The position numbers and the translations under genes are program-made. Below, piece after piece: positions 2,943 through 63,833 of a DNA stretch of 64,000 nt. Numbering within the stretch: the stretch's first letter is position 1; each line of letters begins with the position of its first letter. The DNA is from Opitutales bacterium. GTDB lineage: Bacteria; Verrucomicrobiota; Verrucomicrobiia; Opitutales; PNEW01. The stretch covers positions 151,401 through 215,400 of the forward strand of contig CBDANS010000004.1 of the NCBI GenBank assembly GCA_965197745.1, in the 5' to 3' direction. A model generated the notes under the pieces. That model saw only the letters and a list, made by a program, of their open reading frames with translations. It ran no database searches and was not told the origin of the DNA.

Positions 2943-4260
2943 TGATCGGGTTACGTAAACTGGTCCACCGAGAGAGTTAGTCTGGAGAGGTTAATGTTGA
3001 AGTTAAGTTGGTAGAGGAAGTCAAGGCTTGGGCGCAATGAGGGCGTAGCCCGAATGGAGCCCAAGCCTTCGGTATTAATGTCTTCAGCGAAGCACCGTGG
3101 GGTGATATTGCCGAGGCTGCGGTGGGGTCGGACATTATTGTAAAGCCAGCGCCAGTCCTCGATCACCACGCGGGCTTCGGTCAAAGTCCATAGCTGTTCA
3201 CGGTTTAAACACTCCTCGCGAAAACGGGCATGCAACGATTCGATGTATCCGTTCTGCCAAGGGCTTCCTGGTTCGATATAGAGGGTTTTGATTTTCATCG
3301 CAGTTAGCCAGGCTCTCAATTCCTTTTCAATGAATGGCTTCGCATGTCGTCGCTTCGCTCCTCGGAACGGAACCGTTGTCACTGCGAATATATTGTGGCG
3401 GCCCATGACGGGCAAGCAGTTTTTGCATGATACCGCGCACCGTTTCCGCATTGATATGGCGATCAACATGGATCACTCGACACTCGCGGGTGTACTCATC
3501 GAGCACGGTCAACATTTTTAAACTGCCACCGCGGACCGTCTTATCGTGGATAAAATCCCAGGTCCAAACATGGCCGGGATGTTCGGCCTTGGTCGGCAGC
3601 CCGGTGGAAACACCCCTGCCCCGACGTCTTGGCTTGCGTTGGGGGATCGCCAAGCCCAGTTCGCGTCGTAGACCTTGCACGAGACGTTTACCCACCTCCC
3701 AGCCTTCGTCTTTCAACAGCTTCGTGATCTTCGGATAGCCCCACCTGGCATATTGCCGTGATAACCGCCTTACTGCCGCCTTCAGTTTCATTAACCAAGC
3801 ATCCGGATGCTTCGCCTTATACGCATAGGTGGAACGGTGCAGCCGAAAGTACCGGCACCCCGCTCGCATCGAACACTGGCCCCGAGCCACAAGTCTCTCT
3901 GCCACTTGCCGCTTGTGCCCAGGGCTTACAGTTTTTTTTCGAGGGTCTCCTGCAGGATCTCTATCCCCAGCATCTTGTCCGCCAGCATCCGTTTTAACCG
4001 CGCGTTCTCCTTCAAAGAGTTCCTTCATCCGCTTGGCCTGGTCGACATCAATCATCCCAAACTCACGCTTCCAGCGGTGGAAAGTCTGTTCGCTAATGTT
4101 GTTCTCGCGGCATGCTTCCAGGATCGTTTTCCCTTTGTCCGCCTGCCGCAGCATCCGTATTTTCTCTTCAGTTGTGTATCTTTTGCCTTTCATTGTCTGA
4201 GTCCTTTCTAGGTTACCCAGACTAACTTTTCAAGTGTACCAGTTTTCGTGGTCACGACCA
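2943..4260 (-). mobile_element. IS3-family element (IS407-like orfA/orfB), disrupted
   Basis: Imperfect IRs TGATCGGGTTACGTAAACTGGTCCAC..GTTAGTCTGG (2943) and TGGTCGTGACCACGAAAACTGGTACAC..GTTAGTCTGG (4260, - strand). orfA HTH MKGKRYTTEEKI; A8 slippery run near 3932-3939; orfB motifs WTWDF, SDNG, PGSPWQNGYIES, YNNVRPHRSLG. An extra base near 4015 and a ~32-nt insertion at ~3336-3367 disrupt it. No TSD seen. Confidence 0.92.
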
Positions 4261-4860: not shown

Positions 4861-5309
4861 TTTGACTGAACAACCTGTTGATCCATTCGATGGCCGGTGC
4901 GAGCGCCCAAGGAGAGAACCGCGTTCAATCTCCTGTCAAGCGGGGCCTCATCTCCCATTCGGCTATAAAAGAGATTAAGACAACGGGCGAAATCCGCCGG
5001 AAACAGCCACTCCCTCGACCTACGGCAGAGCGCGCCTCCCCTCGACTCTACTGCTCATCGTGGCCCCTCATACATGTGTGTTTCATGGTATGTTGCCACG
5101 TTAAGGATTCGCACTAATGAGCAGTGGCAATTTTAGGGAATAATTCGTTTTAATTGCTCCTACACTAGAGGTGGTTTTTGCTATTACCAAATAGATGATG
5201 ACGCAGGTTAATTTATAGACAACATTACTGTTAGCGACGCCACTGAACTTATCGATTCAACAACAATCGATCTTGGCATATCTTCTTCAATGTACCTCAT
5301 GCATCAGGT

Positions 5310-6085
5310 ATGTTTGCACTACAAGTCAGAGGAATCGGATGGGAAACTTTTCCATTAGAATTCGGACCCACTCATATCGTGCAAGTGATCGAAGTTGAAG
5401 CTAATAATGAACTTATCGTAGGTGGTTCGGGTGATTTAGTCGGGGAGAACATTCAGCATCCCAATAGAAACGTCTTTGACCAGATCCTGCTCACTGGACC
5501 ATCCATCAAGCTCAAGGCGAAGCCAGGTCAGATCATGAGAGTGTCGTTTATGGATGAAGACGAGGATATTGTCTAGGTGGAGTTCCCAGGCAAAGGCACT
5601 TTTACTGTAACTTTAGATCCAGCGACTTACGTATCTCCGAGGTTACCCCCGCACTATAACCAGCAGGTTGGGTATGTAACAGGTAAACCCAGAGTGGTCA
5701 TTGACGGTGCAGACTCCAGCACTTTCTTCAGTATCTTCACGTTGGGAAGGATCAACGCGGTGAACCAGGCATTATTTCCTGAAGGTCAGGCTTATGATGC
5801 TGAAGCCGATGTTATCCTCGTGGAAGTGATCGACTCCACCCGGAATAGGGGGGGATGCAACTTTCAAATACGGTCTTCAGCGGAAGCTCAGGAAAGGTAG
5901 GTTTGGATGCGCGAGGAGTTCCGATCGCTGTGTGCTTAACGATAGAAGACATTGACGCCAGCGAAATGCGCATCCGCATTTATTATTTGGTACGGGTTCC
6001 TTCACTGTGCTTGTAGGCAATCCAGGGTTGCGCATCACCGGAGGAGACTTGAAGCAAACAAACAGGGCATCAATTGTAGTCGCGG
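5310..6085 (+). pseudogene. Degraded member of the conserved C-terminal-domain surface protein family
   Basis: GSGDLVGENIQHPNRNVFDQILLTG..RVSFMDEDEDIV* then VEFPGKGTF. TAG at 5574 replaces the Gln of DIVQVEF; further frameshifts near 5845 and 5960; cut by an IS3 fragment after NPGLRITGGDL. Confidence 0.88.
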
Positions 6086-6655
6086 AGTGCGGATCGATGA
6101 ATACACGCGTCAATGTCTGGATATCAGAGTAGCTCGTCAACTCACCTCTAAGGACATCCGCACTGTTCTCAGCAAGACCATTGAAAAAGAGGGTGTTTCC
6201 AGCTATATCCGTAGTGACAACGGCAGTGAGTTCATTGCTCATCAAGTGCAGCAGTGGTTATCCAACAAAAAGATCAAGGCGATCTATAGCGATCCGGGCA
6301 GTCCCTGGCTACCGAGCGAAGCGACTCCTCAACGAGCGATAGCGAGAATAACAAACGGTTTCATCGAGTCATTTCACAACCGCTTACCCGATGAGTCTTT
6401 GAACCGTGAAGTGTTGCTCAGCGTGGCTGAAGCCCAATGGGTAATCGAACAATGGCGTCAGACCTACAATAATGAACATCCCTACAGTCATTTAGGCTTT
6501 AATAGCCCACAAGAGTTTGTCAGATTCCTTTCCGATCCTGGCGAAGTGAGGGCGTAGCCCGAACGTGGCCAGGATCTCTCCTATTCATCAACCCTAAAAC
6601 CATTAATCCCCGATACTCTTTAACTTAAACGTATACAAATAATGGAGCCCGATCA
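6086..6655 (+). mobile_element. IS3-family orfB 3' fragment with right IR
   Basis: IDEYTRQCL..IRSDNGSEF..PGSPW[14-aa insert]NGFIESFH..YNNEHP. Ends ..AATGGAGCCCGATCA, similar to the right IR of the first IS3. Confidence 0.85.
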
Positions 6656-6760
6656 GTGTTTTAATCAGTTGTTGCAGTTGATGTAAGTTTTCTATAGGAA
6701 CTTTTCAGATGTGGTATTCTTCTATCAAAAGAATCCAAATCATTGTTAAACAGCCCTATT

Positions 6761-8014
6761 TTAGAATTTAATATCAGTCTGCAGCCAGAACTTCTGCCGA
6801 TCTGCAAAACCATTTTCACCGTTAAAATAACTGTATTTCGCCAGTATTGACCAGTGCTTATTCATCTTTCTGGAGATGACAGCATCTATCTCATAGCCGT
6901 AGTCCTGACTACCTTCCTCAGCTGTGAACCAATGGCCAGTAATTTTAGCTGGCAGATCTTTCATTAAAGAAATTCCTGCCATCAAATAAATATCTTCCAG
7001 CCCTTGAGATGGGGTAGAGAGAAAAACATCACTCCATCCATTAAATTTATGCAAAGTGGCTAATGGGGTACGAAAACCCTGGTTGTTGTCGCTACCCAAA
7101 AGTTCGTAACCGGCACCCAATGTCAAACACTTATAGGTTGATGCGGTAACATGAAAATAATTGGCTTCGTAATTTGATGGATTATTGTTGGCATCTGTCT
7201 GATGTGCAAACTCGACATGCCATTTGAGGATCATTTCATTTTCGCTTTTGCGCGAACCTGAATACTGCATTCCATAGGTATTGCTTGAATTAGCTGCAGC
7301 ATTATTGAGATCCAGAAGATAGGCATAAAGGGTAAGTTTAGTGGATTTCTGGCCCTTGTAATCCATTTTGATCAAATGTGAACTGGATTTAAATTCCCGT
7401 TGCGCGGGTTGGGGAGCATCGTCTCCAAAAATACGATGCACCGTGTCGATATAACCATAATAAAAAATAAAATCGGGTATACTTTGATTTGTTACCGTGA
7501 CCGCATCATAGGTCTGTTCATTTTGACGGAATCCGACATTGCCGATAAAACGGGCATTATCCAAGATGATCCGTTGTCGACCAATTATTGTTGTCGTATC
7601 AAATCCTGTAATACTAACTTGAGCTCGATTTAATTCAGTTCCTTCAGGATCGGCAATTACCGTTCGGCCTGGTTGTGGGTAGGGATTAAAATTACCCTCC
7701 GATCCAATCACCCGAATATCCTCCATTTCTATCAAGGCAGAAATTCCGTTAAAACTACCAGTTTTAAAGCCCAACCGCGTACGTAACGTTACAGCGTTAG
7801 AATCATCACGGCCATCCTGATCGGCAGTTTCATAGCGCGGGCGGACATTTAGAATAATTTTGCTCTCCTTGAGCAAAGGGGGCATCTCTTTTTGTAAAAT
7901 TCGCCCTAATTCAAGTCCTTCTTGTCCCTCACAATAAAACACGAACAGGTTGAAAAGTCCGGTGGTAATTAAAAGCCTGTTAAGCCACATACATTTTAAT
8001 GCGATCAGTTTCAT
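6761..8014 (-). CDS. Outer-membrane beta-barrel, alginate export (AlgE-like) family
   Basis: Signal peptide; RPRYE..TLRTRLG, ADPEGTELNRA, GRQRIILDNARFIGNVGFRQNEQTYDA, FRTPLATLHKFNGW; terminal Phe. Confidence 0.8.
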   Translation of the reverse strand: MKLIALKCMWLNRLLITTGLFNLFVFYCEGQEGLELGRILQKEMPPLLKESKIILNVRPRYETADQDGRDDSNAVTLRTRLGFKTGSFNGISALIEMEDIRVIGSEGNFNPYPQPGRTVIADPEGTELNRAQVSITGFDTTTIIGRQRIILDNARFIGNVGFRQNEQTYDAVTVTNQSIPDFIFYYGYIDTVHRIFGDDAPQPAQREFKSSSHLIKMDYKGQKSTKLTLYAYLLDLNNAAANSSNTYGMQYSGSRKSENEMILKWHVEFAHQTDANNNPSNYEANYFHVTASTYKCLTLGAGYELLGSDNNQGFRTPLATLHKFNGWSDVFLSTPSQGLEDIYLMAGISLMKDLPAKITGHWFTAEEGSQDYGYEIDAVISRKMNKHWSILAKYSYFNGENGFADRQKFWLQTDIKF

Positions 8015-8090: not shown

Positions 8091-8570
8091 TGACCTGCCC
8101 CCGTTTACTGTACCAGAGCCAGTGTTAGATCCGGCAGGATGGTAAGAGTTTTGATTTGATTAGTCCAGAGAACTGTAATCTTTGGATATTATAATTGAGC
8201 CGCCAGGATTCAACTTTTTTTTATTCTTTAACTTCAGTCGATATGCAAAATATCTCGGTGTTAAGAAGTTCATGGTTGGACCCCGTTTTTCGTACCAATT
8301 TTTAAGTGAGAGAGTTACCGGGTGTGACCTGCTCCCGTTTACTGTACCAGAGCCAGTGTTAGTTCCGGCAGGGTGGTATGGGTTTAAATTTGCTTAGACA
8401 TGGCTCTGTGGGCGTATTCGGCCGGAGGCCGATAGCCCAGAGAACTGTGTGGTCTTTGAGTATTATAATCAAGCTGTAAAAGGCTTCAAGTTTTTCTTTC
8501 ACTTCAGCCGGTATACATAATATTTCGGTGTTAAGAAATTCATCTCATAAGCGTCAATGGACGGCTAACA
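8091..8570 (-). mobile_element. Two tandem IS3-family 3'-end relics plus an intervening second IS end
   Basis: Direct repeat TGACCTGCYCCCGTTTACTGTACCAGAGCCAGTGTTAG at 8091 and 8325. The - strand encodes DEFLNTE..DYNTQRPHSSLGYRPPAEYA. A second IS3-like end starts at 8273. Confidence 0.8.
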
Positions 8571-40486: not shown

Positions 40487-43267
40487 GTGTGGAGACTTAT
40501 AAAGTTCAGCTATCAGTATACCGCACCGGTTTTGGTGGTTATTACGGTCTTAATGATCTTAGCGGGATCGCAGCTTGATAAAATCCGCTTAGAGGTTTCA
40601 GCTGATGAATTGCTTCCCCGACAGAGTAGATTGCGGGAAGAATATGATTCAATACGTTCAGCTTTCGGTTCGGATAAAGTTGTTGCTGTATATATTGAGG
40701 ACGCAGCATTATTCACGCACGCGCGTCTGACACGGCTTGAAGAATTATATGATACACTATCCAACCTGGGTGGGGTGCAAAGGTTAGAGAGCCTATTTAA
40801 TATCAGTCATATAAAATACAAGGATGGGTGGTTAGAGACAGGACCCATTCTCGATATCATTCCCGAGGATGCCGACGAACTATTAAAGCTCAAGGAGGAA
40901 GCGGTGAGCAATCCACTCTTGCGCCGCCGGGTAATTTCTGCTGATGGCAATGCAACGCTTCTAACGCTCTACCTCGAGGAAAGCGCTTCTCCGCACGGCG
41001 CTGAAAATATTGATCAGGTAGCCGAAGGCATGGAGATGGGAAGATGGAGTTTTGAGCGGTACATTTACATGCAAATAGAAGAGACCCTTAAAGATTTCAG
41101 CGGTGATTTTGACCGGGTATTTCAAGTGGGTACTGCTGCCATGCAGGTGGAGATGAAACAATTTATCATTGAAGATCAACGCTACCTGCTTCCTCTCTCC
41201 GCGTTACTGGTTGTTTTAATTATTGGAGTGGCTTTGCAGAATGTTCATGCAGCCGTAGTCCCCGTAAGTAATGCGATTCTCAGCACGATCTGGACTCTCG
41301 GGTTGCTCGCCTTTCTCGATATTCCAATCAATATGCTCAATTATATTGTTCCAGCTCTCATTATCGTGGTGGGGGCAACGGAGGACGTGCACATTCTTGC
41401 GGAATTTATTGAATCGCGAAGAAGTGGATATGAAGGGCCACGAGCCATGCTGAAAACTGCGCATAGAATTGGGCTCACATTATTTTTAACCGCAACTTCC
41501 ACTATCCTCGGGTTTGCCGCCACAGGCTTAACGGATATAATTGCCATGCGTCACTTTGGTATTGCCGCTTCTCTGGGAATGATGTGCCGGTTTCTGGCTT
41601 CAGTCTTTTTTCTCCCCGCCTATCTTCGAATATTTCAAAATCAGTTTTCGAGCAAATCGAGGCGAGGCGTGGTTAACTTTGCGCGATTATATGCGGAAAA
41701 ACTCGCCTCTAATATTATGCGGGGGTTGATCAAGCACCCGGCAGTCATCATCTCATTATTTGTAGTTATCGCGCTACCCTGTCTTTTTTTTGCAAAGCGT
41801 ATTTCATTAAATAATGATTTACCTGCTTTCTTACGTGAGGACTCCAAGGTCGTTCAGAATATCAATACTGTGGCCGAGCGGTTATCCGGATCTAAAGTCA
41901 TAAATATCACCCTCAATGGTAATGCGGGTGATTTTAAGCGAAGTGAAAATCTTCAACGTCTTAAAGATCTCAGTGAGGAACTTAGATCGATGGAAGAACT
42001 CGATAATGTCGTGTCCCTTGCCGACTACATTTGCCTTGTCAACCGGGAGATGCAGGGAGGCGCTTCCGAACAATATATGATTCCTGAAAACAATGCTCTT
42101 ATCGCGCAATACCTGATCTTTTTCCACAGCAGTGATCTGCGACCCTACGTGACTCATGATTATGCCAAAGTCAATATCGCGATACGAACTAATATTGGTA
42201 ACAGCACCCATTTTAACCAACTGGTAGATAATATTCGGGATCTGCTCGATAGTGGGCGATTCGGTCCTCTTGTTTATTCGGTGACGGGCAAGTCGGTTCT
42301 TGTCGCCGCGGCCGTGGACAATATTGCAAAAGGGCAGCTGACCTCTCTTAGTTCAATTACAATATTACTATTTGTCATCGTTACGATTCTCTTTCTTTCA
42401 CTGCGCTGCGGGTGTCTCGCCGTCTTGGCAAATCTCTTTTCCATTGCGGTTATTTTCGGGCTCATGGGTTTGGCTCAGATACCCCTTAATCTCGGCACCT
42501 GCATGGTAGCGGCTATCACTATTGGTATCGGTGTCGATGACACGCTCCATTTGATGGTGCAATACAATCGTGAACTCAAAGTGCTTAAAGATGAAAAAAA
42601 AGCGCTCGAACAGGCGCTCCGCATCGAAATCCTGCCCGTTATGGTCACCTCCATCAGCCTCGCTGTTGGTTTTCTTGTCCTCTCCTTTTCCAGTTTTCTT
42701 CCCGTGAAGCAATTTGGAGCGCTCAGCGCCGTAGTTATCCTGCTCGCTGTGGTCGCCGATATGATATTAACCCCCGCTCTCTTTTCGACCACGCGACTGA
42801 TAACGATTTGGGATTTGCTGGGAATAAAACTGCAGAAAACGCTCCAGGAAAAATGCCGCCTTTTTCAAGGTATGAGCATATGGCAGATAAAAAAATTTAT
42901 CCTCCTCTCACACCTTGTAGAATACCGGAAGGGAACTTTGATAATGCGCGAGGGGGAACTCGCCCATGTTATGTACATCATCATTGAAGGCGAACTTGAA
43001 GTATCCAAATTAATCAATAAGGTAAATACCAATCTAGCTAAACTCACTATCGGTGATGCGGTTGGAGAGATAGCCCTCGTGCACCAAAATAAAAGAACGG
43101 CGGATGTTCGAGCTATCACCGATGCCAAAATGCTTGCCATTGACTGGGAATCCCTGGAGAAAATCCAACGGTACTCACCCTATCTCGCTTCCAAATTTTA
43201 TCTCAATCTCGCACGCGTTCTTGGCCTTCGCATCGTGCAGACCGTGAGTCGTATCGAGAGAGGATAG
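40487..43267 (+). CDS. MMPL/RND family transporter with C-terminal cyclic-nucleotide-binding domain
   Basis: Two RND halves (IVVGATEDVH, GIGVDDTLH); tail EGE....MYII.EG.LEV..GD.VGEIAL....RTADVRA. Confidence 0.9.
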   Translation: MWRLIKFSYQYTAPVLVVITVLMILAGSQLDKIRLEVSADELLPRQSRLREEYDSIRSAFGSDKVVAVYIEDAALFTHARLTRLEELYDTLSNLGGVQRLESLFNISHIKYKDGWLETGPILDIIPEDADELLKLKEEAVSNPLLRRRVISADGNATLLTLYLEESASPHGAENIDQVAEGMEMGRWSFERYIYMQIEETLKDFSGDFDRVFQVGTAAMQVEMKQFIIEDQRYLLPLSALLVVLIIGVALQNVHAAVVPVSNAILSTIWTLGLLAFLDIPINMLNYIVPALIIVVGATEDVHILAEFIESRRSGYEGPRAMLKTAHRIGLTLFLTATSTILGFAATGLTDIIAMRHFGIAASLGMMCRFLASVFFLPAYLRIFQNQFSSKSRRGVVNFARLYAEKLASNIMRGLIKHPAVIISLFVVIALPCLFFAKRISLNNDLPAFLREDSKVVQNINTVAERLSGSKVINITLNGNAGDFKRSENLQRLKDLSEELRSMEELDNVVSLADYICLVNREMQGGASEQYMIPENNALIAQYLIFFHSSDLRPYVTHDYAKVNIAIRTNIGNSTHFNQLVDNIRDLLDSGRFGPLVYSVTGKSVLVAAAVDNIAKGQLTSLSSITILLFVIVTILFLSLRCGCLAVLANLFSIAVIFGLMGLAQIPLNLGTCMVAAITIGIGVDDTLHLMVQYNRELKVLKDEKKALEQALRIEILPVMVTSISLAVGFLVLSFSSFLPVKQFGALSAVVILLAVVADMILTPALFSTTRLITIWDLLGIKLQKTLQEKCRLFQGMSIWQIKKFILLSHLVEYRKGTLIMREGELAHVMYIIIEGELEVSKLINKVNTNLAKLTIGDAVGEIALVHQNKRTADVRAITDAKMLAIDWESLEKIQRYSPYLASKFYLNLARVLGLRIVQTVSRIERG

Positions 43268-43274
43268 ACGATTT

Positions 43275-43301
43275 GGAAGATGTCGGACTTCGTCCTCGGT
43301 A
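43275..43301 (-). repeat. Micro-element TACCGA-GGAC.GAA.GTCC-GACATCTTCC (one of six copies)
   Basis: Related copies at ~3336-3367(-), 6310-6352(+), 47771-47793(-), 62637-62661(+), 63707-63730(+). Confidence 0.7.
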
Positions 43302-43436
43302 CCATTGGCGATTCGCCGTTGCTCTTCGAGCTATGGCGTAACATGTTGCTGAACGCACATCTCAGTATCGTCTATTATTAAAAAAAACTTTTGTTATTAA
43401 TAAAATTAAATTAGGATTTTTTACTAATGGATAAAA

Positions 43437-43512
43437 GGGGCCGTAGCTCAGTCGGAAGAGCGCTACACTCGCATTGTAGAGGTCGCCGGTTCGATTCCGG
43501 TCGGCTCCACCA
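43437..43512 (+). tRNA. tRNA-Ala (anticodon CGC)
   Basis: 76-nt cloverleaf GGGGCCG..CGGCTCC-A-CCA; G3:U70; anticodon arm CTACA-CTCGCAT-TGTAG; GGTTCGATTCC T-arm. Confidence 0.96.
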
Positions 43513-43640
43513 AACTTTGCATTGCAAAGTTTGCCCTCCATAGTTTTCCCGCAAATGCTGGACGGAACGAAGGATGGGCATTTCGCATTCAAAAGCTAAT
43601 AGATTATCATCACCTTCGCAACTCAACGTCAGCAATTGGA

Positions 43641-46280
43641 TCACTCAAGGGTCACAGCTTCGACGATGACATTGATTTTCCAACCATTGGCATTCGAAAA
43701 GGACACTTCACCGCTAATGTTCTGTCTCGGCTGCAGAGTTCCATCAGATTTAATATTATCTTGAGATATCAGTGTTTCGAACCCCGGCGTTTCTGAACCG
43801 CTTGGAGCAATAATAATGGGAGCATTATTGCTTTGAACCAAATCCCCCCCAATTATTCTCAAGCCAGCGTTTGGAGCTTCCACCGTGAAAGAGTTTTCCC
43901 CAAAACGAAGATAAGGCACCGCCTCATCAGAGGCATCAATTTCACCGACCAGGGCACGGACTGCTACGGGCACGCCGTTGGCGTCAATGCCTACTTTCCC
44001 CGTGGATCCCGTAAAGCGTGTGTTGGCGCTTTGAATACCACCGAAACCGGTTGAATTTTTTATTTCTATTAAAGAAACATCGGCCATTGCATCGTAGACT
44101 TTTCCCTCCGGAAATAATGCCTTGTTTACCGCATTGGTCGGTCCCACCGTGTAGACACTTAAGAAGGTGTTTTCGTCTGCTTCTTCAACCGTTATGCGTG
44201 GCCGCCCTTTAACGTATAATACATTCTGGTTATATTTCTCTGGATAGGCGGGCAGGGGTTGGGTGATAGCATCAAGGGTGATGGTAACCACGGCATTACC
44301 GGAGAATTCCACCTGCACGATATCATCGGTTTCATCTATAAAAGCGGCACGTATAATCTCATTCTCTACTGATCGCATTACGGCGAACGGACCTGTAAGT
44401 AACACCTGGTTATAAAAATTGCCATTGGGATGACGAATTGCTTCCCCAACCACATTCCCCCATCCTTTTATTAAGATATTATCTTTTCCCTGGGGTTGGT
44501 CATTTTCATCTATTTCTATATCGGTAACAATGATTTCAGTAAAACCTGCATTGTTATTTTCATCGCTTTCTTTTATTCTTTCAAAAGGATCGACAATATA
44601 CCCTAAATAATACGTATCGGGGTTAAGGTTCATGGGGATAATAACCTCGAAAAAATTACCCTCAGATATACCGGAAAGTAATCCTGACTCTGTAAAATTA
44701 CCCAGGTTCGTATCTTTGGTTGTTATATTTTCATCTACGGAGAGGTAAAGCCCGTGTTCATATTCAACGGCTGGTCCAAGCCCTGAATTACTCCGGAAGA
44801 AATCGACAAGAACTTTCTCACCGGAGATCACTGATGTGCTGGCGACATTTATTGAGCTGACCGCTAAGTCGGGTAAACTGTTGGGTTCAGTGAATTCAAC
44901 AGAGAGGGTGTAGGGGCCGAGGCCGTTTTCTTTGTAGTGACTGACCATGAGGTAACAGGTTCCTGGATCAAGATCGACTGACATAAGAAAATTACTGCCC
45001 GAACTGCTTTCATTGACAATGGCAACCTTGTTACCCAATTCGTTTTGCAGGATGAAACTATCATCGATGATTTCAATCGCATCTGTATTACCAGGCGTAA
45101 AGTTAGCAAGCGTGCCTGTGCGCTTGCTGCCCGAACCGCTTTCATCGTCGATGAAAATAATGTTTCCCAAAGCATTCTGCAGGATGCCTACGGTGTCAGT
45201 ATTCCCGGAAGTAAATACGGAAAGCGTCCCCGGGTGCTCTACTTCGATCCGAAAATAGTCAAGGTCACTTGCTGTTTCGATGATCCCGGGTATCGCGCTG
45301 TTAAGGGCAACCACAGTAGCGGTCTCACGAGAATCTCCATGATCATCTGATGTAGGAAGTTGGGTATCGGATTCCGCTGACTTTATTAATAGTGAAACCG
45401 CGTCGTCGATACCAACAACAAATAAATACTCGTCAGGAATTTCACTGGCCACAATGCCGATTACACCCCAATCGTTAGTCCCGTCGGGGAAAGTGATATG
45501 ACCATAAACAGGTCCACCGCTATTACCGGGACCGGTGAAAAGATCGTCGGTTTTATAAAGGCGTCTGGAATTATCTAAACGGTCGTTATAGTTAACTAAT
45601 TTAAAATTGGCCAAACTTCCATAAAGACTGGTTGAATGCATGGTATGGCGTCTGGGGTCAGTACTGCTGTAGCCCAGACTGGGATAGCCAATTATCATTT
45701 TTTCCGAGCTTTCCGTGATAAGATTGCTGCCCCACGCAGTGTGTCCACCATTAGCGACATCCTCAAAAAATATAAGGCAGATGGCATCGAGATTAACTTG
45801 TTCAAATGATGAGCTGCGTCTGCCAGGATCAAAAAGGCGCGTCGCCTTAGCGTAGTCGGAAAAAATACGGTATGACTGTGCCCCAACCGGGGCTTCAAAT
45901 ATATTGGCAAGTGAATGCTGTAATCGCCAACGGTAAGAGCCCGATGCAAATTTCAAGTTCCCTTCATCATAAAACAAGTGAGCTGAAGTGAGGACAACTT
46001 TTTCAGAAATGGCGACGCCGGTGGCTTCAGCGGTTATAATCGAGGGTGAGAATACTTTCCCCACCATATTAAAAGGGTATTCACTGATCTTATTGTCGGG
46101 TAAAGGGGTAGAAATTCTTTGCGCGAGGAGCTTCGGTAAAAAAAATGGCATGGAGATTACAGCAACGATTAAAAAGAACCGGTGCAATCGACGGTACGCT
46201 GTTATTTCTCGATAAATATTCACGGTAATTAATTCCGAGACATTAAAATCCACCTCTTTCCGCTGATGCGACATTATCAC
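43641..46280 (-). CDS. Secreted trypsin-like serine protease + PPC-like + CARDB domains + conserved C-terminal domain
   Basis: VLTSAH, NLDAICL, GNSGGPV triad; DDHGD..DLDYFR; LPDLAV..ESDENNN; tail HPNGNFYNQVLLTG..DIVQVEFSG..VEAVTLE. True start may be downstream of 46280. Confidence 0.88.
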   Translation of the reverse strand: MIMSHQRKEVDFNVSELITVNIYREITAYRRLHRFFLIVAVISMPFFLPKLLAQRISTPLPDNKISEYPFNMVGKVFSPSIITAEATGVAISEKVVLTSAHLFYDEGNLKFASGSYRWRLQHSLANIFEAPVGAQSYRIFSDYAKATRLFDPGRRSSSFEQVNLDAICLIFFEDVANGGHTAWGSNLITESSEKMIIGYPSLGYSSTDPRRHTMHSTSLYGSLANFKLVNYNDRLDNSRRLYKTDDLFTGPGNSGGPVYGHITFPDGTNDWGVIGIVASEIPDEYLFVVGIDDAVSLLIKSAESDTQLPTSDDHGDSRETATVVALNSAIPGIIETASDLDYFRIEVEHPGTLSVFTSGNTDTVGILQNALGNIIFIDDESGSGSKRTGTLANFTPGNTDAIEIIDDSFILQNELGNKVAIVNESSSGSNFLMSVDLDPGTCYLMVSHYKENGLGPYTLSVEFTEPNSLPDLAVSSINVASTSVISGEKVLVDFFRSNSGLGPAVEYEHGLYLSVDENITTKDTNLGNFTESGLLSGISEGNFFEVIIPMNLNPDTYYLGYIVDPFERIKESDENNNAGFTEIIVTDIEIDENDQPQGKDNILIKGWGNVVGEAIRHPNGNFYNQVLLTGPFAVMRSVENEIIRAAFIDETDDIVQVEFSGNAVVTITLDAITQPLPAYPEKYNQNVLYVKGRPRITVEEADENTFLSVYTVGPTNAVNKALFPEGKVYDAMADVSLIEIKNSTGFGGIQSANTRFTGSTGKVGIDANGVPVAVRALVGEIDASDEAVPYLRFGENSFTVEAPNAGLRIIGGDLVQSNNAPIIIAPSGSETPGFETLISQDNIKSDGTLQPRQNISGEVSFSNANGWKINVIVEAVTLE

Positions 46281-47403
46281 GCAAGCGGCTTACGAGTAAT
46301 TCAAGCTGTGGTCTTAAATGTTGAAATCGGTTATCATTCAACCATGTTTCAGCTTGTCCTAAACTGGAACGATCAATTTTTGCCATTTCCCCTAATGTAT
46401 ATGAAGGGTTCTCAGTAAGCAAATTATTGGACATAATTAAATTGAAGTTTGGGAATAACGCGACGAAAACTTCAACTTCTTCTACTGTAGTGTCAGTATT
46501 GGATAGATAGGTTTCGACGATTTCCTTCTGACGGCTATCGGTAATAGCTGCGCGCGAAAAAAATCCTGCCCGTGTATCAGGGTGGTCAGATAATAGACGG
46601 GGTTGTTCCAGTAAAATACTTAGAGATTGTCGGGTGTCAACGAGGACCATTTTGTCCATTGCCATAAATGCGGCATGAGCCAGGGCTTTGGGATTATCCT
46701 GGTCCAGCATGGCGGCAAATTCTGGAAGGTTGTCCATTGATTGCGTGTAAACGGCAACATCAAAACTATGCAGGTAACCGGCAGTCGGATTTTCCCGCCA
46801 GGGGTCATGGGTCAACGCTTCATGTAATTTTTCTTTAAGAAGGGGGATACTGCGGGACTGAGGATTATTCCATGCAACATTGCGCAGTGATATGGCCCAT
46901 TCGTCAGGTGAATCTTTGCTTCTGAATACATCGTTGGCGTAATCAGCCGCGATCTCGGGATCAACAATGCCCAATACATCCAATAGCATAACGCGCAGGG
47001 TAGGGGATCCAGATAAAAAACCTCTCTTATCAACGTGGAAACTGAACCCCGTTTCTGTATCTATTCCTGACTCTAGAAACTGTATAATAGCCCGGATGTT
47101 CGAATCGGAAGCATCTGAGATTAATGTTTTACGTAAAGTGTCAATAGTGTTGCGTGCCGCTTCGGAACCCGGAGCATTTTTAATTTTATCATACGTCTCA
47201 CGAATCGGATTCGTTATCCGCAGTCGGTTTTGACTGGATTTATCCTCGGTTGGAGAATTAGGTGACTTTGGTTTACCCTCAGTCGTGTAAGGTGATTGCG
47301 GACTTAGCTTCCCGTCACGTTTAAGAACAATCCATGCCACGGTAATGACGACTATAGTGATGCCAATAGTGGCAGTCAAAACATGACGTTTTTTCCGGAG
47401 CAT
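46243..47403 (-). CDS. Membrane-anchored helical hypothetical protein, probably co-transcribed with the protease
   Basis: Basic N-terminus + TM helix, Pro-rich linker, helical body; overlaps or abuts the protease gene. Confidence 0.7.
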   Translation of the reverse strand: MLRKKRHVLTATIGITIVVITVAWIVLKRDGKLSPQSPYTTEGKPKSPNSPTEDKSSQNRLRITNPIRETYDKIKNAPGSEAARNTIDTLRKTLISDASDSNIRAIIQFLESGIDTETGFSFHVDKRGFLSGSPTLRVMLLDVLGIVDPEIAADYANDVFRSKDSPDEWAISLRNVAWNNPQSRSIPLLKEKLHEALTHDPWRENPTAGYLHSFDVAVYTQSMDNLPEFAAMLDQDNPKALAHAAFMAMDKMVLVDTRQSLSILLEQPRLLSDHPDTRAGFFSRAAITDSRQKEIVETYLSNTDTTVEEVEVFVALFPNFNLIMSNNLLTENPSYTLGEMAKIDRSSLGQAETWLNDNRFQHLRPQLELLVSRLRDNVASAERGGF

Positions 47404-47485
47404 TATTTTAAAAGATTAGTCGATACCGAGTGTAATTAGGTATTCGCGATTGCGCGTTGTCAAAAGTCTAATGTCGAAATTAAAG

Positions 47486-47885
47486 AAGCGTGCTTGACGA
47501 CCGTAGCATGTCACTATACAGCGAAGGCTGTTCCCTAGCACGCTTCTTCAATTGCGACATTCTCAAACGCGCCAGGGACACGATTCGACTGAGCTCATCG
47601 CAGGTTGCGTTCCACCTAATTGCCTGACACATGGCTATTATTTATGAGATCACTGTCTAACCATCCTGGATCTTGCATCGTGCATCATTCAATCGTTAAC
47701 TCTTCAGTCGTCACCTTAACTTTGCCCATACCGGGGAAATGTCGCTCACATATTGACATTCCCCTGGAATGGAAGATGTCGCTGCGCTCGGAAGCCGTGG
47801 TCGGTTTTCACCTCCCTCGCAATGACAATTTTATAAAATCTCTTTTTGTGGCTATTCCCAATCGAAAATCGAAAATCAGCATTCG
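47486..47885. repeat. Mosaic of short palindromic and heptamer repeats containing an orphan gene tip
   Basis: AAGCGTGC..GCACGCTT, AACGCG..GGGACA..GCGTTCCAC, CCCCTGGA..CCTCGCAATGAC, (AATCGAA)n; the - strand at 47685-47726 encodes GKVKVTTEELTIE*. Confidence 0.65.
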
Positions 47886-47894
47886 GCAATGATT

Positions 47895-50147
47895 TTATTC
47901 AATCGTGATCTCTTCTGTCGTTACCTCGATCGCATCCCCATCTTCGTTGGCGAAGGTGGCATCAATGCTCAGGGTCGGCTGAGGGGTGTTGTCGGACTTG
48001 AAGTTGTTCTGGGTGATCAGGGTCTCAAACCCGGTCGTTGTCGAACCACTCTCCGCGACGACGACCGCAACGCCATTTGTCTGCAACAAGTCGCCCCCGG
48101 TGATCCTCAACCCGGGGTTGCCCGCGGGTACCGTGAAGGACCCTTCTCCGAACAGGATGTGGGGCACCGCATCACCATCGGCGTCGATGTCGCCTACCGT
48201 TAAGCGTACCGCGATCGGCACACCGCGCGCGTCGAAGCCGACCTTGCCCGTGCTTCCACTGAACACGGCATTCGATAACTGCACTCCTCCCAGTCCCGTG
48301 GAGTTGACTACTTCCACGAGACTCACGTCGGCCTGGGCGTCATAGACTTGACCTTCGGGGAAGAGTGCCTGGTTAAAGGCGTTAATCCTGCCCACGGTAA
48401 AGATGCTGAAGAACGTATTGGCGTCCGCTCCGTCGATGACCACGCTCGGCTTGCCCGTCACGTACTCGACGGTCTGGTTGTAGCGCGGAGGAATGGCTGG
48501 GGGCAGGAAGGTGGCCGGGTCGAGGGTTACGGTAAAGGTACCGTTGCCTGAGAACTCTACCTGCACAATGTCCTCGTTTTCGTCCATGAAGGAAACGCGG
48601 GTGATCTGTCCCGGTTTGGCCTGAAGTTGGACGAACTCTCCGGTGAGTAAAATCTGGTCGAAGACGTTACCGTTGGCATGCTGAATGTCTTCCCCGGCGA
48701 TATCGCCCGAGCCGTCGAGGACGAGGGGTACGGAGGGCGCAGCTACGGTGATGGTCGCGGTATCACTGTCAGCAGTGCCGCCGGCGTTCGCTACCTGTAC
48801 CCAGTAGTTCGTGCTCATGGTGAGCGCACCGGTTGTCAGCGTGCTGCCGTTTGCGCCGGCGACGGGAGCTGCGGTGTCACCGCTGTTACCGGTATACCAC
48901 TGGTAAGTAAGATCATCGCCACTGGCGGCTACGAATAAAACAACAGCGGTCCCGGACTGCACCTCCTGGCTCGCGGGCTGGGTCGTGACCGTGGGAGCGC
49001 TGGGACCTCCTCCATTGCCGCTGGAGGCGCCGATAGGAGTAAAACCAAAATCATCGATGGCGATATGAGTGAAACTGCCAGCTATAGAAGAAATGGCAGG
49101 ACTGTTGGAAAAGGTAATTTTTCCAATCCCTCCTGGTGCTCCCAGTACATCCGCATTGAAGTCAAAAAAGGTGAAGGGGACTTCAAATTCAATACTGATA
49201 TTATCCGGGATATCTGTAGTGGAAATAAGCAGGTTATCATTGGTGTCGAAGACTTCGATCAATGCATCTCCCTCTATTTCACGGACCGCATAAAATTGCA
49301 CGCGCGCTGCAGGTGTTTCAAAAGTAATCGTTCCTACAAGTTCATTTTCAATTGCCCAGATAGCCGAAGCATCTTGTCCGGCAGAAGTTCCGCCAGCGAA
49401 GAAGAGAGAAGGATAGGTGTGATTATAGCGGGTTAACCCGGAAGCACTTTGGACAAGGCCACCGGTGAAAGTAGCGGATACGGGAGATGTCCCGAGGGTA
49501 AAATTTGCCCGGTTAGCGAAGACGGGACTACCGAATTGTAATCCTTCAAAATCATCATATACGGTATTATCCGGTGGTCCCACTACATAAGAAAAGCCAA
49601 GATCATCGATAGCGACTTGCCCGGTGGCGTTGATGATTTTTAATTCTGTTATACCGTTAGTAAAATCAAGGTCAGTGGGGTCTGCAGCAGTTCCACTGAA
49701 CGCGACAAAACTTTGTAATAGCGGATTCGCGCCGGGACTAATGTTAGTCGGTAAGCCTGTGACCGTCCCTTGTTGGGACAAGACGGCAAAATTTTTATCG
49801 CGTAATTCGATACGACCCCCACCTCCGGTGTCCACCGCATAAAATTGGAGAGAATTAACGCCCCGTTCAAAGAGGATTTTCCCTTCTGCAACCCCGGCGG
49901 AAAGCATCAGGGCTTTACTCCCTGAGTGATAAAGAGCGGGATTGCCGACGGACAACAAATCAAAGCCGATCACTCGTATGCTATTAGGTGATTCACCGAT
50001 GATGAATTCCGCTCCTTCTCCCGTTACATTTTCAAAATCAAAGAACGTGTTGAGATCTTGAGGGGCTGCATTGAGTGCCAGGGAGTGCCCCAGTGACAAT
50101 ACTAGAACCGTTAGAAGATTTCTATATTTCATAATTTCATTCCTCAT
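47895..50147 (-). CDS. Secreted/surface protein, paralog of 2..2251
   Basis: Signal peptide; two IDDLGF/IDDFGF repeats; Ig domain; C-terminal domain ending VTTEEITIE. Confidence 0.9.
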   Translation of the reverse strand: MRNEIMKYRNLLTVLVLSLGHSLALNAAPQDLNTFFDFENVTGEGAEFIIGESPNSIRVIGFDLLSVGNPALYHSGSKALMLSAGVAEGKILFERGVNSLQFYAVDTGGGGRIELRDKNFAVLSQQGTVTGLPTNISPGANPLLQSFVAFSGTAADPTDLDFTNGITELKIINATGQVAIDDLGFSYVVGPPDNTVYDDFEGLQFGSPVFANRANFTLGTSPVSATFTGGLVQSASGLTRYNHTYPSLFFAGGTSAGQDASAIWAIENELVGTITFETPAARVQFYAVREIEGDALIEVFDTNDNLLISTTDIPDNISIEFEVPFTFFDFNADVLGAPGGIGKITFSNSPAISSIAGSFTHIAIDDFGFTPIGASSGNGGGPSAPTVTTQPASQEVQSGTAVVLFVAASGDDLTYQWYTGNSGDTAAPVAGANGSTLTTGALTMSTNYWVQVANAGGTADSDTATITVAAPSVPLVLDGSGDIAGEDIQHANGNVFDQILLTGEFVQLQAKPGQITRVSFMDENEDIVQVEFSGNGTFTVTLDPATFLPPAIPPRYNQTVEYVTGKPSVVIDGADANTFFSIFTVGRINAFNQALFPEGQVYDAQADVSLVEVVNSTGLGGVQLSNAVFSGSTGKVGFDARGVPIAVRLTVGDIDADGDAVPHILFGEGSFTVPAGNPGLRITGGDLLQTNGVAVVVAESGSTTTGFETLITQNNFKSDNTPQPTLSIDATFANEDGDAIEVTTEEITIE

Positions 50148-62533: not shown

Positions 62534-62984
62534 CGTACTAAAGTGATTCGGGTAGTAAGCAGTACCTGTCACACCATAGCTCTACTTAGCAGAGCGACGG
62601 TTGATCCCTTCTGCATATATTTTTTATGATAGCCACTACCGAGCCGAAGGCGACATTTTTCAAAGGCACAAGAGGGAATTTTAAATAAAAGAGAAATTTT
62701 ACAGGAAGAACGGAAAGATCGGAAAGAAATAACTCTGGAGGGCCACGCTCCGTCGTGGCCGCTTAAAATTGAGAATCATTTATTTTTTTTATTTTAAATA
62801 ATGGTTACGGACGCGACGGAGCGCGTTCCTCCAGATGAAATGGTGGAACGCGATGTCCCTATCGCGTTATATCTTAGCTACTAAATAAAGAAGCGTGCTG
62901 GGGCACACCGCTCCACCTGACACTTAACACTTGTTTCTTTTGACTTTAGACTTTCGACTTATATCCAACGCGCGACCGCGCTTT

Positions 62985-63677
62985 TCATTCCGATTGATCA
63001 TCGGTAATTTCCATCAGGCTTCTCCCTAGAAATTCAGCCACATCATCATTGGATTTTGTTTCGGGCAGTTCTTCGTAGTAACGGCATTGAAATTCGACTA
63101 CAGAAAAAGGTTTGGGGAGATAAAAACGGTCCCAACTCTTAAGGCGCCAGGCGTTGTGGAACTTACCGGTGATAAGAAGGACAGGTGATTTCGCCTGGCG
63201 CGCGACGAGAGCGGCGCCCGGTTTGAACTGGTAGCGCGGACCACGGGGTCCGTCGGGGGTAATCGCGATGTCGTTGCCTGAAGTGATTTGATTGACGAGC
63301 TCACGGGTCGCAGTGACGGCGCGGTAGCTGCTGGAACCGCGGACCGCCTTAAGTCCAGCAAAGGAGAGAAAAGCGGTCAGCCAGGCACCGTCGCCACTTG
63401 CGCTGATCAGTCCGTACATCAGCCGGTGATAGCGGTAACGCCTGATAATTTCCGAAGCGACAAAGAGCCAGTTGTGCCAGATGATAACCACCGCCGGGAT
63501 ATCAGACCTGCATATCAATCGATGATTTTCAGAGGTGATTTTAAAACGCAAGGAAGCGCCCCATAAACGAAGCAATACACTTAAAGGCCAGAACGCCACA
63601 TAGCGCCAGCCAGCTAAATGCTGAATATTCGGTGCGCTTTCACCTTCTGCATCCGTTGCTGTCGTCTTTTCCTGCAT
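62985..63677 (-). CDS. DUF374 lysophospholipid acyltransferase-like protein
   Basis: WH, LISASGDG, VRGSS, ITPDGPRGP, SWDRF.LP.PFS. Confidence 0.88.
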   Translation of the reverse strand: MQEKTTATDAEGESAPNIQHLAGWRYVAFWPLSVLLRLWGASLRFKITSENHRLICRSDIPAVVIIWHNWLFVASEIIRRYRYHRLMYGLISASGDGAWLTAFLSFAGLKAVRGSSSYRAVTATRELVNQITSGNDIAITPDGPRGPRYQFKPGAALVARQAKSPVLLITGKFHNAWRLKSWDRFYLPKPFSVVEFQCRYYEELPETKSNDDVAEFLGRSLMEITDDQSE

Positions 63678-63833
63678 GGCATTATCTTTATAGCCACAAG
63701 AGGCACTACCGAAGCGAAGCGAGATCTTTCAAAACCACAAGAAAATATTACAGAATGAGCCGGTGGGGCGGTAATAATAGCACTGGAGGGCCACGCTCCG
63801 TCGTGGCCGTAACCATTATTTATAATAAGAAAA

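Follow-up and report, generated by a model that had tools for sequence, protein, structure and literature searches.

To our knowledge, the Nostocaceae are the only bacterial lineage from which mobile DNA as short as about 25 bases has been reported (in 2008); how it moves is not known, and we know of no explanation of the mechanism of such very small mobile repeats since then. The description (Elhai et al. 2008, Genome Res 18:1484) reportedly concerns the small dispersed repeats SDR1-8, of about 21-27 nt. SDR4-6 are said to have conserved ends and a variable hairpin centre, with filled and empty sites that show no target duplication, and the SDRs are reportedly nested in other repeats and at short iterated sequences, the enzyme being not known. 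In the available part of a later paper, HIP1 is a possible insertion site for SDR5, and SDR-like repeats were not found outside the Nostocaceae among the cyanobacteria examined (PMC5861425). We describe here a micro-element from a marine Opitutales bacterium, seen in a stretch of 64,000 nt of its genome (the window). With about 100 insertions in repeats, spacers and a transposon, it is among the smallest apparently mobile DNA units, and we consider that it probably represents a family of insertion elements that is confined to one lineage, its members being only 23-34 nt long, non-coding and non-autonomous.

Two other lines of work concern hairpins of the kind met here. The hairpin called NTS (CGTCATTCCCGCGMAVGCGGGAATCYRG) is bound by Ssn only as single-stranded DNA, with cleavage by Ssn a few bases upstream (Chenal et al. 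2025; PMC11893778); the available portion of that paper demonstrates the cutting of single-stranded DNA and demonstrates no insertion. Mini-hairpins are very stable as DNA: in the work of Hirao and co-workers, as excerpted in PMC13037366, GCGAAGC melts at 76.5 C and GCGTAAGC at 71.5 C, and such hairpins are present at single-stranded DNA priming sites (the phage G4 origin, RSF1010 ssiA). The d(GNA) loops are also covered in the accessible text of PMC3201870.

The micro-element and its hairpin

The window corresponds to C4:151401-215400 of the source genome (G000), which comprises 4.45 Mb in 7 contigs with about 45% G+C. An earlier note, made from the letters of the window, had described the micro-element at six sites. 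The four short sites, at 43275-43301 (-), 47771-47793 (-), 62637-62661 (+) and 63707-63730 (+), were confirmed letter for letter. The note had also placed longer versions inside two IS3-family insertion sequences (IS); the one at 3335-3368 is a real insert, with a differing frame, and in the second IS3-like element no insert was found. The order of the micro-element is a fixed TACCGA, a variable hairpin (7-8, 11-12 or 18 nt) and a fixed GACATCTTCC, nearly always followed by A.

We observed that the degenerate pattern T[AT]CCGA-N5-16-GA[CG]AT[CT]TT[CT]C, in which a hairpin is not demanded, matched G000 60 times, and five same-size third-order Markov genomes 2, 0, 1, 0 and 2 times, so that the enrichment over control sequence on which the earlier note had made its claim depend was borne out. 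A full-length stem with a 3-4-nt loop was present in 45 of the 60 matches; when the inner part was shuffled 200 times, such stems numbered 5.8 on average and 13 at most. Copies with exact flanks numbered 49 in G000, 69 in G001 and 90 in G002, these three genomes belonging to one Opitutales family (f1), and the reversed pattern used as control gave 0-1. A chance likeness among short GC-rich hairpins is already refuted by these counts. All that speaks for it is that unrelated Verrucomicrobiota yield a single non-hairpin flank match in about 1 per 30 genomes (12 of 400), and we regard its probability as practically nil.

We further scanned G000 under relaxed conditions (left flank at least 5/6, right flank at least 8/10, closing stem at least 2 bp). 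This gave 151 matches, of which the 106 with no more than two flank mismatches look genuine, the three-mismatch matches being mostly noise. These 106 matches are the copies referred to below.

Among the 106 copies there were 68 distinct hairpins. The 7-8-nt class has 43 copies (GCGCAGC 18, GCGTAGC 5, GCGAAGC 2, and the GCGTAAGC type in IS copies), the 11-12-nt class 33 (GGGC-GNA-GCCC, GGAC-GAA-GTCC, GAGC-AAA-GCTC) and the 18-nt class 22. In summary, the types are a GCGNAGC/GCGNNAGC mini-hairpin, G(G/A)(G/A)C-GNA-G(Y)(Y)C and GTCCCGC-N4-GCGGGAC. The commonest loops were GCA (19), GAA (17), GTA (10) and AAA (6). The 11- and 18-nt classes both showed compensatory pair changes, such as G-C to A-T, C-G to T-A and T-A to C-G. 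Together with the full stems and the number of distinct hairpins, these changes agree with the earlier statement that the sequence and length of the stem vary while pairing is kept. The 7- and 8-nt classes match the mini-hairpin DNA consensus GCGNAGC/GCGNNAGC in every letter, with GCGTAAGC / GCATAAGC in the IS copies.

The hairpin of the micro-element is bracketed by GA...GA. Tandem sheared G-A pairs are able to extend a stem, and the bracket may lengthen the stem of the micro-element in this way. Genome-wide, there were 629 perfect 4-bp hairpins topped by C-GNA-G, and 106 of them carried the GA..GA bracket, the chance expectation being about 1 in 256. The other main GA-bracketed frames were CAATGA-hairpin-GAATGGAGCC and [AC]AGTGA-hairpin-GAACGCGGCC, near IS ends, and CGAGGA-GCGAAGC-GACGACATGC, inside IS3 genes. 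The hairpin-less core TACCGAGACATCTTCC had no match in the genome with up to one mismatch. A scan of the window with Rfam 15 at gathering score gave no match to the micro-element, and only a tRNA at 43437-43509.

GA-bracketed hairpins also lie within longer stems in or near IS elements of the window, namely GGGCGTAGCCC at 3035-3061 (+) and 6544-6570 (+), and GGCCGGAGGCC at 8414-8440 (+). Their frames are CAATGA..GAATGGAGCC, AAGTGA..GAACGTGGCC and GTATTC..GATAGCCCAG, respectively, with 42, 40 and 9 genome copies.

Distribution of the family

The family is limited to f1 and one further genome, G015, among the 431 Verrucomicrobiota searched. G015, from another family of the order, has 6 exact-flank copies, five of them with the hairpin GTTGAAAAC. 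The other 27 genomes of the order had 0 or one non-hairpin match each, and the family was not found in 400 further Verrucomicrobiota. An exact search for the 23-mer TACCGAGCGNAGCGACATCTTCC (with a GCGNAGC hairpin) in one-genome-per-species GTDB contigs matched only three Opitutales/Puniceicoccaceae metagenome-assembled genomes (MAGs). Each genome has abundant hairpin sub-variants of its own, GAGCGTAGCTC for instance being frequent in G001 and missing from the G000 list, which fits copying from resident copies. A literature search with the two flank strings gave primer-type matches only among the papers listed, no search being aimed at Opitutales repeats.

Filled and empty sites

An orthologous comparison was obtained for the copy at 63707-63730 (+), which reads TACCGA, AGC-GAA-GC(G), GAGATCTTTC, and is flanked by gaggcac and aaaaccacaag. 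It lies upstream of a DUF374 gene (62985-63677, -), in a non-palindromic unique site. At this locus G001 and G002 read GGCAC-AAAAACCAC and G003 reads GGTAC-AAGAACCAC, the hyphen marking the junction, and G000 reads GGCAC[TACCGAAGCGAAGCGAGATCTTTC]AAAACCAC. The orthologous site is therefore exactly empty in all three genomes.

The copy at 43275-43301 (-; TACCGA, GGAC-GAA-GTCC, GACATCTTCC) lies 8 nt past the stop of an RND-transporter gene (40487-43267), in a spacer of AATCG-type short repeats upstream of the tRNA. The corresponding spacer of G001, G002 and G003 is without the element. The tRNA gene itself, at 43437-43509 (+) directly downstream of the spacer, is kept in G001-G003.

The copy at 62637-62661 (+; TACCGA, GCC-GAA-GGC, GACATTTTTC; flanked by atagccac and aaaggcacaag) has an identical copy at the orthologous place in G001, indicating an insertion common to G000 and G001. 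About 130 nt around it (62600-62740) are almost identical to G001 C1 at about 316,950-317,080, the flanking genes being about 86% identical; possibly all of it is one repeat unit, or the result of a recent exchange. The region 62560-62760, at the end of C4, is the same sequence as C7:540-760, including the copy (C4:214037, C7:647), and C4 and C7 probably overlap, or lie end to end, in the genome. A dispersed hairpin repeat, GGAGGGCCACGCTCCGTCGTGGCC, follows both end-of-window copies (at 62725-62760 and 63780-63810) and recurs near many others.

For the copy at 47771-47793 (-; TTCCGA, GC-GCA-GC, GACATCTTCC), a unique orthologue was not found, the neighbouring gene end (about 47900-48600) being a repeated domain. 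This end, the 3' end of the gene at 47895-50147 (-), has more than 80 matches in G001 and G002, at 79-89% identity, and the summed contig depth over it rises 30-fold in public runs.

Two of the three testable window sites (43275 and 63707) are thus absent from the sister genomes, with no sign of replacement, and arose after the split from the sister genus. Three G001 copies that were compared with G002 gave no clean filled/empty pairs, the regions being mosaic repeat clusters.

Paralogous sites were evaluated by joining the flanks of each copy and searching G000 with them. An empty paralogous counterpart was found for 54 of the 106 copies, several pairs being 95-98% identical over 60 nt. We also compared the copies of IS_a, an IS3-family element of 1318 bp (2943-4260, -) defined by Pfam rve/HTH matches, a copy census and alignment. 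Of its 40 full-length copies, 6 carried a 23-nt TACCGA element beside an A8 run and 34 were empty, among them the window copy and a 75%-identical outgroup copy. The micro-element is a discrete non-coding unit, far shorter than a miniature inverted-repeat transposable element (MITE), and is present or absent at sites, orthologous as well as paralogous, that otherwise match; to this extent the view of the earlier note is supported.

Empty alleles were also looked for in public runs. Nine runs from three studies, with no RNA run listed among them, contain the window region 42500-48500 as Logan contigs, and four runs from the three studies were compared. Each of the four had contigs over 42500-43297, and X1 and X5 also had contigs over 43273-43482, giving the filled state at 43275. 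No joint skipping either window copy was seen in the contigs of the four runs; these contigs break inside the element and drop rare variants, so that rare empty alleles would not show in them.

Of the 106 copies, 24 lie in stop-free frames of at least 150 codons. The seven non-IS cases that were inspected all lay in the stop-free extension ahead of the probable start codon; among the rest, eight copies were in an IS context. Real protein genes are without copies except for those of IS elements.

The above results also bear on whether the micro-element could be a selected cis-acting signal, either a single-strand initiation or primase-loading site that excludes the single-strand DNA-binding protein, or an RNA-level stabiliser or terminator. 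The extreme stability of GCGNAGC/GCGNNAGC mini-hairpins and their occurrence at priming sites (in the available text of PMC13037366), the intergenic location of copies, often just past stops or upstream of starts, and the strong conservation of the flanks in three genomes would all fit such a role. It is countered by the occurrence of both orientations relative to neighbouring genes inside the window alone, by copies within transposase genes and other selfish repeats, by the restriction to one family and one other genome, by the absence of two of three testable sites from sister genomes without a sign of replacement and by the lack of an Rfam match. We consider a signal of this kind very improbable.

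Inserts in the IS3 elements

The insert at 3335-3368 (-) adds a net 31 nt to the transposase open reading frame (ORF) of IS_a. It reads GTTCCGAG-GA-GCGAAGC-GAC-GACATGCGAAGCCA, and its frame, TTCCGA-GGA-GCGAAGC-GAC-GACATGCGAAGCC, is related to but distinct from that of the micro-element. The insert is indel-polymorphic, being present in 35 of the 40 full-length copies. Where it is present the transposase is split into 300 + 173 codons in different frames, and this includes at least 17 near-identical, evidently recently spread copies. Two insert-free copies were translated; one had an uninterrupted ORF of 415 codons, and in the other the two frames were arranged as usual. Either the few intact copies would act in trans, or frameshifting or removal would get round the insert.

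In the second IS3-like element (about 5300-6800), homologues align across the proposed site with only about 3 gaps, and the resemblance at 5919-5950 looks like ordinary coding sequence. Elsewhere in G000, a 41-nt relative, TACCGA-GCGAAGC-GACACCTCAACGAGCCAAAGCGAGAATA, lies between PGSPW and QNG codons in nine other IS3-family genes, at sites that include C5:25808, C5:279238, C6:565960, C7:161092, C7:970689 and C7:468551, all outside the window. This relative was also seen once in a divergent IS_a copy.

Target sequences and junctions

The sequence contexts in which the micro-element was found include at least five that are unrelated. Among the 106 copies, 44 lie in the arms of Ssn-type hairpin repeats, 17 in AAATC-type short repeats, 14 between ..GCCAC and AAAGGCAC.. 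units (GCCAC/GCAC repeats), 8 within copies of one IS3 element and 3 in AACCCTG heptamer arrays; the other 20 copies lie elsewhere, some of them being doubtful.

The base preceding the element was C in 68 and G in 24 of the 106 copies, and the following base was A in 98, as expected from the earlier observation that the element sits between C/G and A. The absence of a clear target duplication likewise held at the non-array sites. In most comparable pairs, two target bases are swapped for the element plus A. The replaced bases are AA at the 63707 orthologue, in the GCCAC/GCAC units and in the AACCCTG arrays, and AG in IS_a; for the ATCGCT and GGGATC arrays of other MAGs they are CT or GG, as inferred from the period. 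In the Ssn-type arms, AA or GA is swapped for the element plus AT.

Insertion in arrays was strand- and phase-specific, with the forms ...CCCTG-element-ACCCTG and ...ATCG-element-AATCG, and the position in the Ssn arm was GC-AATCC. Of 23 sampled G001 copies (drawn from 20 of 69 sites and picked among 11-nt-hairpin matches), 12 had the form ...CC(C/T)G-element-ACCCTG-like in one orientation and none had it in the other. A fixed array phase and orientation were seen in G001, in two other MAGs and in G015, where one copy is at the edge of an (ATGGTGA)n array. The phase-exact position is thus common to arrays of the unrelated units AACCCTG, ATCGCT, GGGATC and ATGGTGA.

The Ssn-type host repeat

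The most frequent host of the micro-element is a repeat made of TGTCATTGCGAGG, an inner hairpin, GACG(A/C)(A/G)GC and AATCCAGG..., which occurs as inverted pairs. In the window, one arm of this repeat (of the SRM / CGTC-tagged type) lies at 47761-47827 (-) and reads tgtcattgcgaggg, inner hairpin, gaccacggc, element, attccagggg; the copy at 47771 is within the 3' strand of its outer stem. We counted 135 arms in the genome. The context gaccacggc-element-attccagggg represents 46 filled arms, and 89 empty arms read gc-aatccagg or gc-gatccagg. The three bases after the junction were ATT in 36, ACT in 5 and AAT in 5 of the filled arms, and AAT in 67, GAT in 19, ATT in 2 and AGT in 1 of the empty ones.

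Inverted pairs of these arms enclose small GIY-YIG genes of about 100 codons (Ssn-type), recognised by a PF01541 search, in four units: C7:1542004-1542222, C7:1545659-1545877, C7:483646-483864 (with one stop) and C6:787949-788140 (broken). Three of the gene-bearing units are filled and one is empty. The two near-identical units at C7:1541900-1546000 (each with arm, micro-element, GIY-YIG gene and arm) face each other across about 3.4 kb that hold ORFs of 424 and 279 codons, and could form a composite element.

The micro-element is a passenger of this repeat. Its place is in the outer stem, whose 3' strand it splits (ATTGC / GC-AAT), three bases before the C that Chenal et al. (PMC11893778) report as weighing most in binding. 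It is also not a fragment of this described longer repeat, an outcome that the earlier note had named as a refutation, since 62 of the 106 copies are outside the arms and 89 of the 135 arms are without the element. The copies outside the arms lie a median of several kb from the closest arm.

Insertion or recombination

Several results weigh against an interpretation of these copies as insertion elements, and the first of them come from the search for an enzyme. The earlier note had suggested looking for a nuclease or transposase gene flanked by the motif; no enzyme could be linked to the micro-element. A PF01797 (Y1) search of G000 gave one match, at C6:163380-163706, in a broken frame (199 + 175 codons), and no copies of the micro-element were present within about 1.7 kb of it; a link to the REP-associated tyrosine transposases (RAYTs) was therefore rejected. 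Y1 genes were found in 16 of the 31 relatives regardless of the motif. Small GIY-YIG genes were found in 26 of the 31, including motif-free ones, and GIY-YIG presence was rejected as a correlate of the motif. Among pairs of copies within 6 kb in G000, no gene was recurrently bracketed. The inverted pair at C7:1541906 / C7:1545942, considered as a candidate for a bracketed gene, corresponds to the two facing Ssn-type units.

Other points of the same kind come from the junctions. The right junction is non-uniform, being plus A or plus AT according to context, with a linked A-to-T change in the Ssn-type arms, which would not be expected from simple cut-and-paste. In tandem arrays, a two-base replacement is indistinguishable from a 4-5-nt duplication (CCCTG, ATCG) plus A. 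The copies at C6:1377391, C7:925667, C6:586310 and C6:723954 have chimeric flanks that join two context types, indicating that recombination at copies, besides insertion, shapes the contexts. No new insertion of the micro-element was found in the youngest IS_a copies (about 99.6-100% identical). Finally, the 7-nt class comes out at 0 kcal/mol with nearest-neighbour DNA parameters, which do not capture 2-bp GNA mini-hairpins; the stability of this class rests on the melting data excerpted in PMC13037366 and not on computation.

A rival explanation is that the micro-element is one of the modules in a mosaic of repeats, the others being Ssn-type/CGTC hairpins, GCCAC/GCAC units and short tandem arrays. 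Such modules would be shuffled between repeats by recombination, gene conversion and replication slippage in the manner of BIMEs, and the micro-element would be carried along rather than inserted. The large share of copies in Ssn-type arms (44 of 106) is consistent with this, and the arm core, GA-hairpin-GAC, has the grammar of the micro-element and the same three hairpin size classes. Short-tract co-conversion would also fit the change of the neighbouring base (36 of 46 filled arms have ATT, and 86 of 89 empty ones have AAT or GAT), and the chimeric left and right flanks and the negative enzyme search point the same way. However, shuffling does not readily account for the exactly empty orthologous site at 63707, with unchanged flanks in three genomes, nor for the position beside the A8 run in the IS3 gene (6 of 40 copies), which has no homology to any repeat module. 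The distance of the non-arm copies from the closest arm and the same exact phase in arrays of four unrelated units also speak against it. We therefore hold shuffling of a module to be an unlikely explanation, though one with more weight than a cis-acting signal.

The comparisons show additions of the unit at precise positions within sequences unrelated to one another, the 5' junction being sharp and preceded by C or G. Under the interpretation that we prefer, that of a family of small insertion elements, new copies would be made from existing ones by what may be a replicative process. The target would be single-stranded or slipped at insertion, as is suggested by the nature of the targets, which are arrays, palindrome arms and the site beside the A8 run of the IS3 element. 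A trans-acting nuclease or strand-transferase would read the two fixed flanks and not the sequence of the hairpin. Cut-and-paste transposition would not be expected to combine a sharp 5' end with a 3' junction that varies slightly; this combination may instead recall one-ended or copy-in processes. That the micro-element is itself recognised as single-stranded DNA, as the earlier note had proposed, is something that we can only infer, because the enzyme search came up empty; indirect support comes from the array and palindrome-arm targets, from the strand and phase specificity and from a hairpin type that is very stable as DNA.

A bolder version of this proposal is an undescribed chemistry of single-stranded DNA insertion, in which a cassette of about 25 nt is copied and spliced in a strand- and phase-specific manner into slipped or hairpin DNA (tandem arrays, Ssn-type arms and a site beside a homopolymer run), with two bases replaced. 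Catalysis would be by an Ssn-type GIY-YIG nuclease, the recognition hairpins of these nucleases being the commonest target of the micro-element, or by another enzyme common to this Opitutales family. We put this forward tentatively and think it doubtful. If true, a defined substrate and a handful of candidate enzymes would open the mechanism of very small mobile repeats to testing.

The micro-element offers a second, unrelated case of mobile DNA of this size, with a clean anatomy: fixed flanks, a free hairpin, a sharp 5' junction, about two bases replaced and a fixed phase in arrays. It has a repeatable target inside the recognition hairpin of the biochemically tractable Ssn nucleases, which leads to concrete in-vitro substrates. 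Annotators should be aware that such inserts can split transposase genes and alter hairpins read by Ssn-type enzymes. If the copies are only decayed selfish DNA, their interest is modest.

Comparison with known systems

The host repeats, and not the micro-element, resemble the NTS/SRM system as available from PMC11893778, having GTCATTGC...GCAATCCAGG arms in inverted pairs around a GIY-YIG gene of about 100 codons. They also match the CGTC-tagged super-family of repetitive extragenic palindromes (REPs) of Di Nocera et al. 2013, in the accessible part of PMC3733652. SRM/NTS repeats are inverted hairpin repeats of 20-50 nt on either side of an ssn gene (a GIY-YIG gene of the cd10448 type). The micro-element itself does not flank the GIY-YIG gene as the host arms do, 62 of its 106 copies being elsewhere.

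The micro-element shares with the REP/REPIN-RAYT systems, as excerpted in PMC3116915 and PMC3733652, that it is a short intergenic and often clustered hairpin, thought to be handled as single-stranded DNA, without target duplication. REPs in these excerpts have a tag 5' of a family-specific palindrome and flank a RAYT gene, whereas in the micro-element the palindrome is variable and the flanks are fixed. Neither TACCGA nor GACATCTTCC is a GTAG or CGTC tag; GTAG arises only when the opposite strand is read, at a place 3' of the hairpin, and borrows a flanking base. No copy of the motif flanks the single PF01797 match of the genome, the frame of which is broken.

Comparison with MITEs was likewise negative, TACCGA and GACATCTTCC not being inverted repeats, duplications being absent at non-array sites, and the length being 23-34 nt against the usual size above 70 bp. 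The micro-element is also unlike a miniature of the IS200/IS605 type, which has two different subterminal hairpins and inserts 3' of one fixed tetra- or pentanucleotide; it has a single hairpin and left flanks that vary (..GGC, ..AGC, ..CAC, ..CTG, ..TCG, ..TAC). The literature on mini-hairpin DNA, in the available text of PMC13037366, deals with physical chemistry and priming sites and not with dispersed repeats, and the 11- and 18-nt classes are ordinary longer stems.

We observed the closest likeness with the SDRs of the Nostocaceae as they are reported. The micro-element agrees with them in size and copy number (23-34 nt; 106 copies in G000, and 69 and 90 exact-flank copies in G001 and G002), in its conserved ends and variable hairpin, in presence and absence without duplication, and in its nesting within other repeats and at short iterated sequences. 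It differs from the SDRs in having three hairpin size classes of up to 18 nt, in the replacement of about two target bases at the junction and in a main target that is a fixed position in Ssn-type hairpin repeats. The host, an Opitutales bacterium, belongs to another phylum, and the two are likened by their described features. Together, these comparisons have led us to suggest that the micro-element works in the manner reported for the SDRs, and we do not count it as a member of that group.

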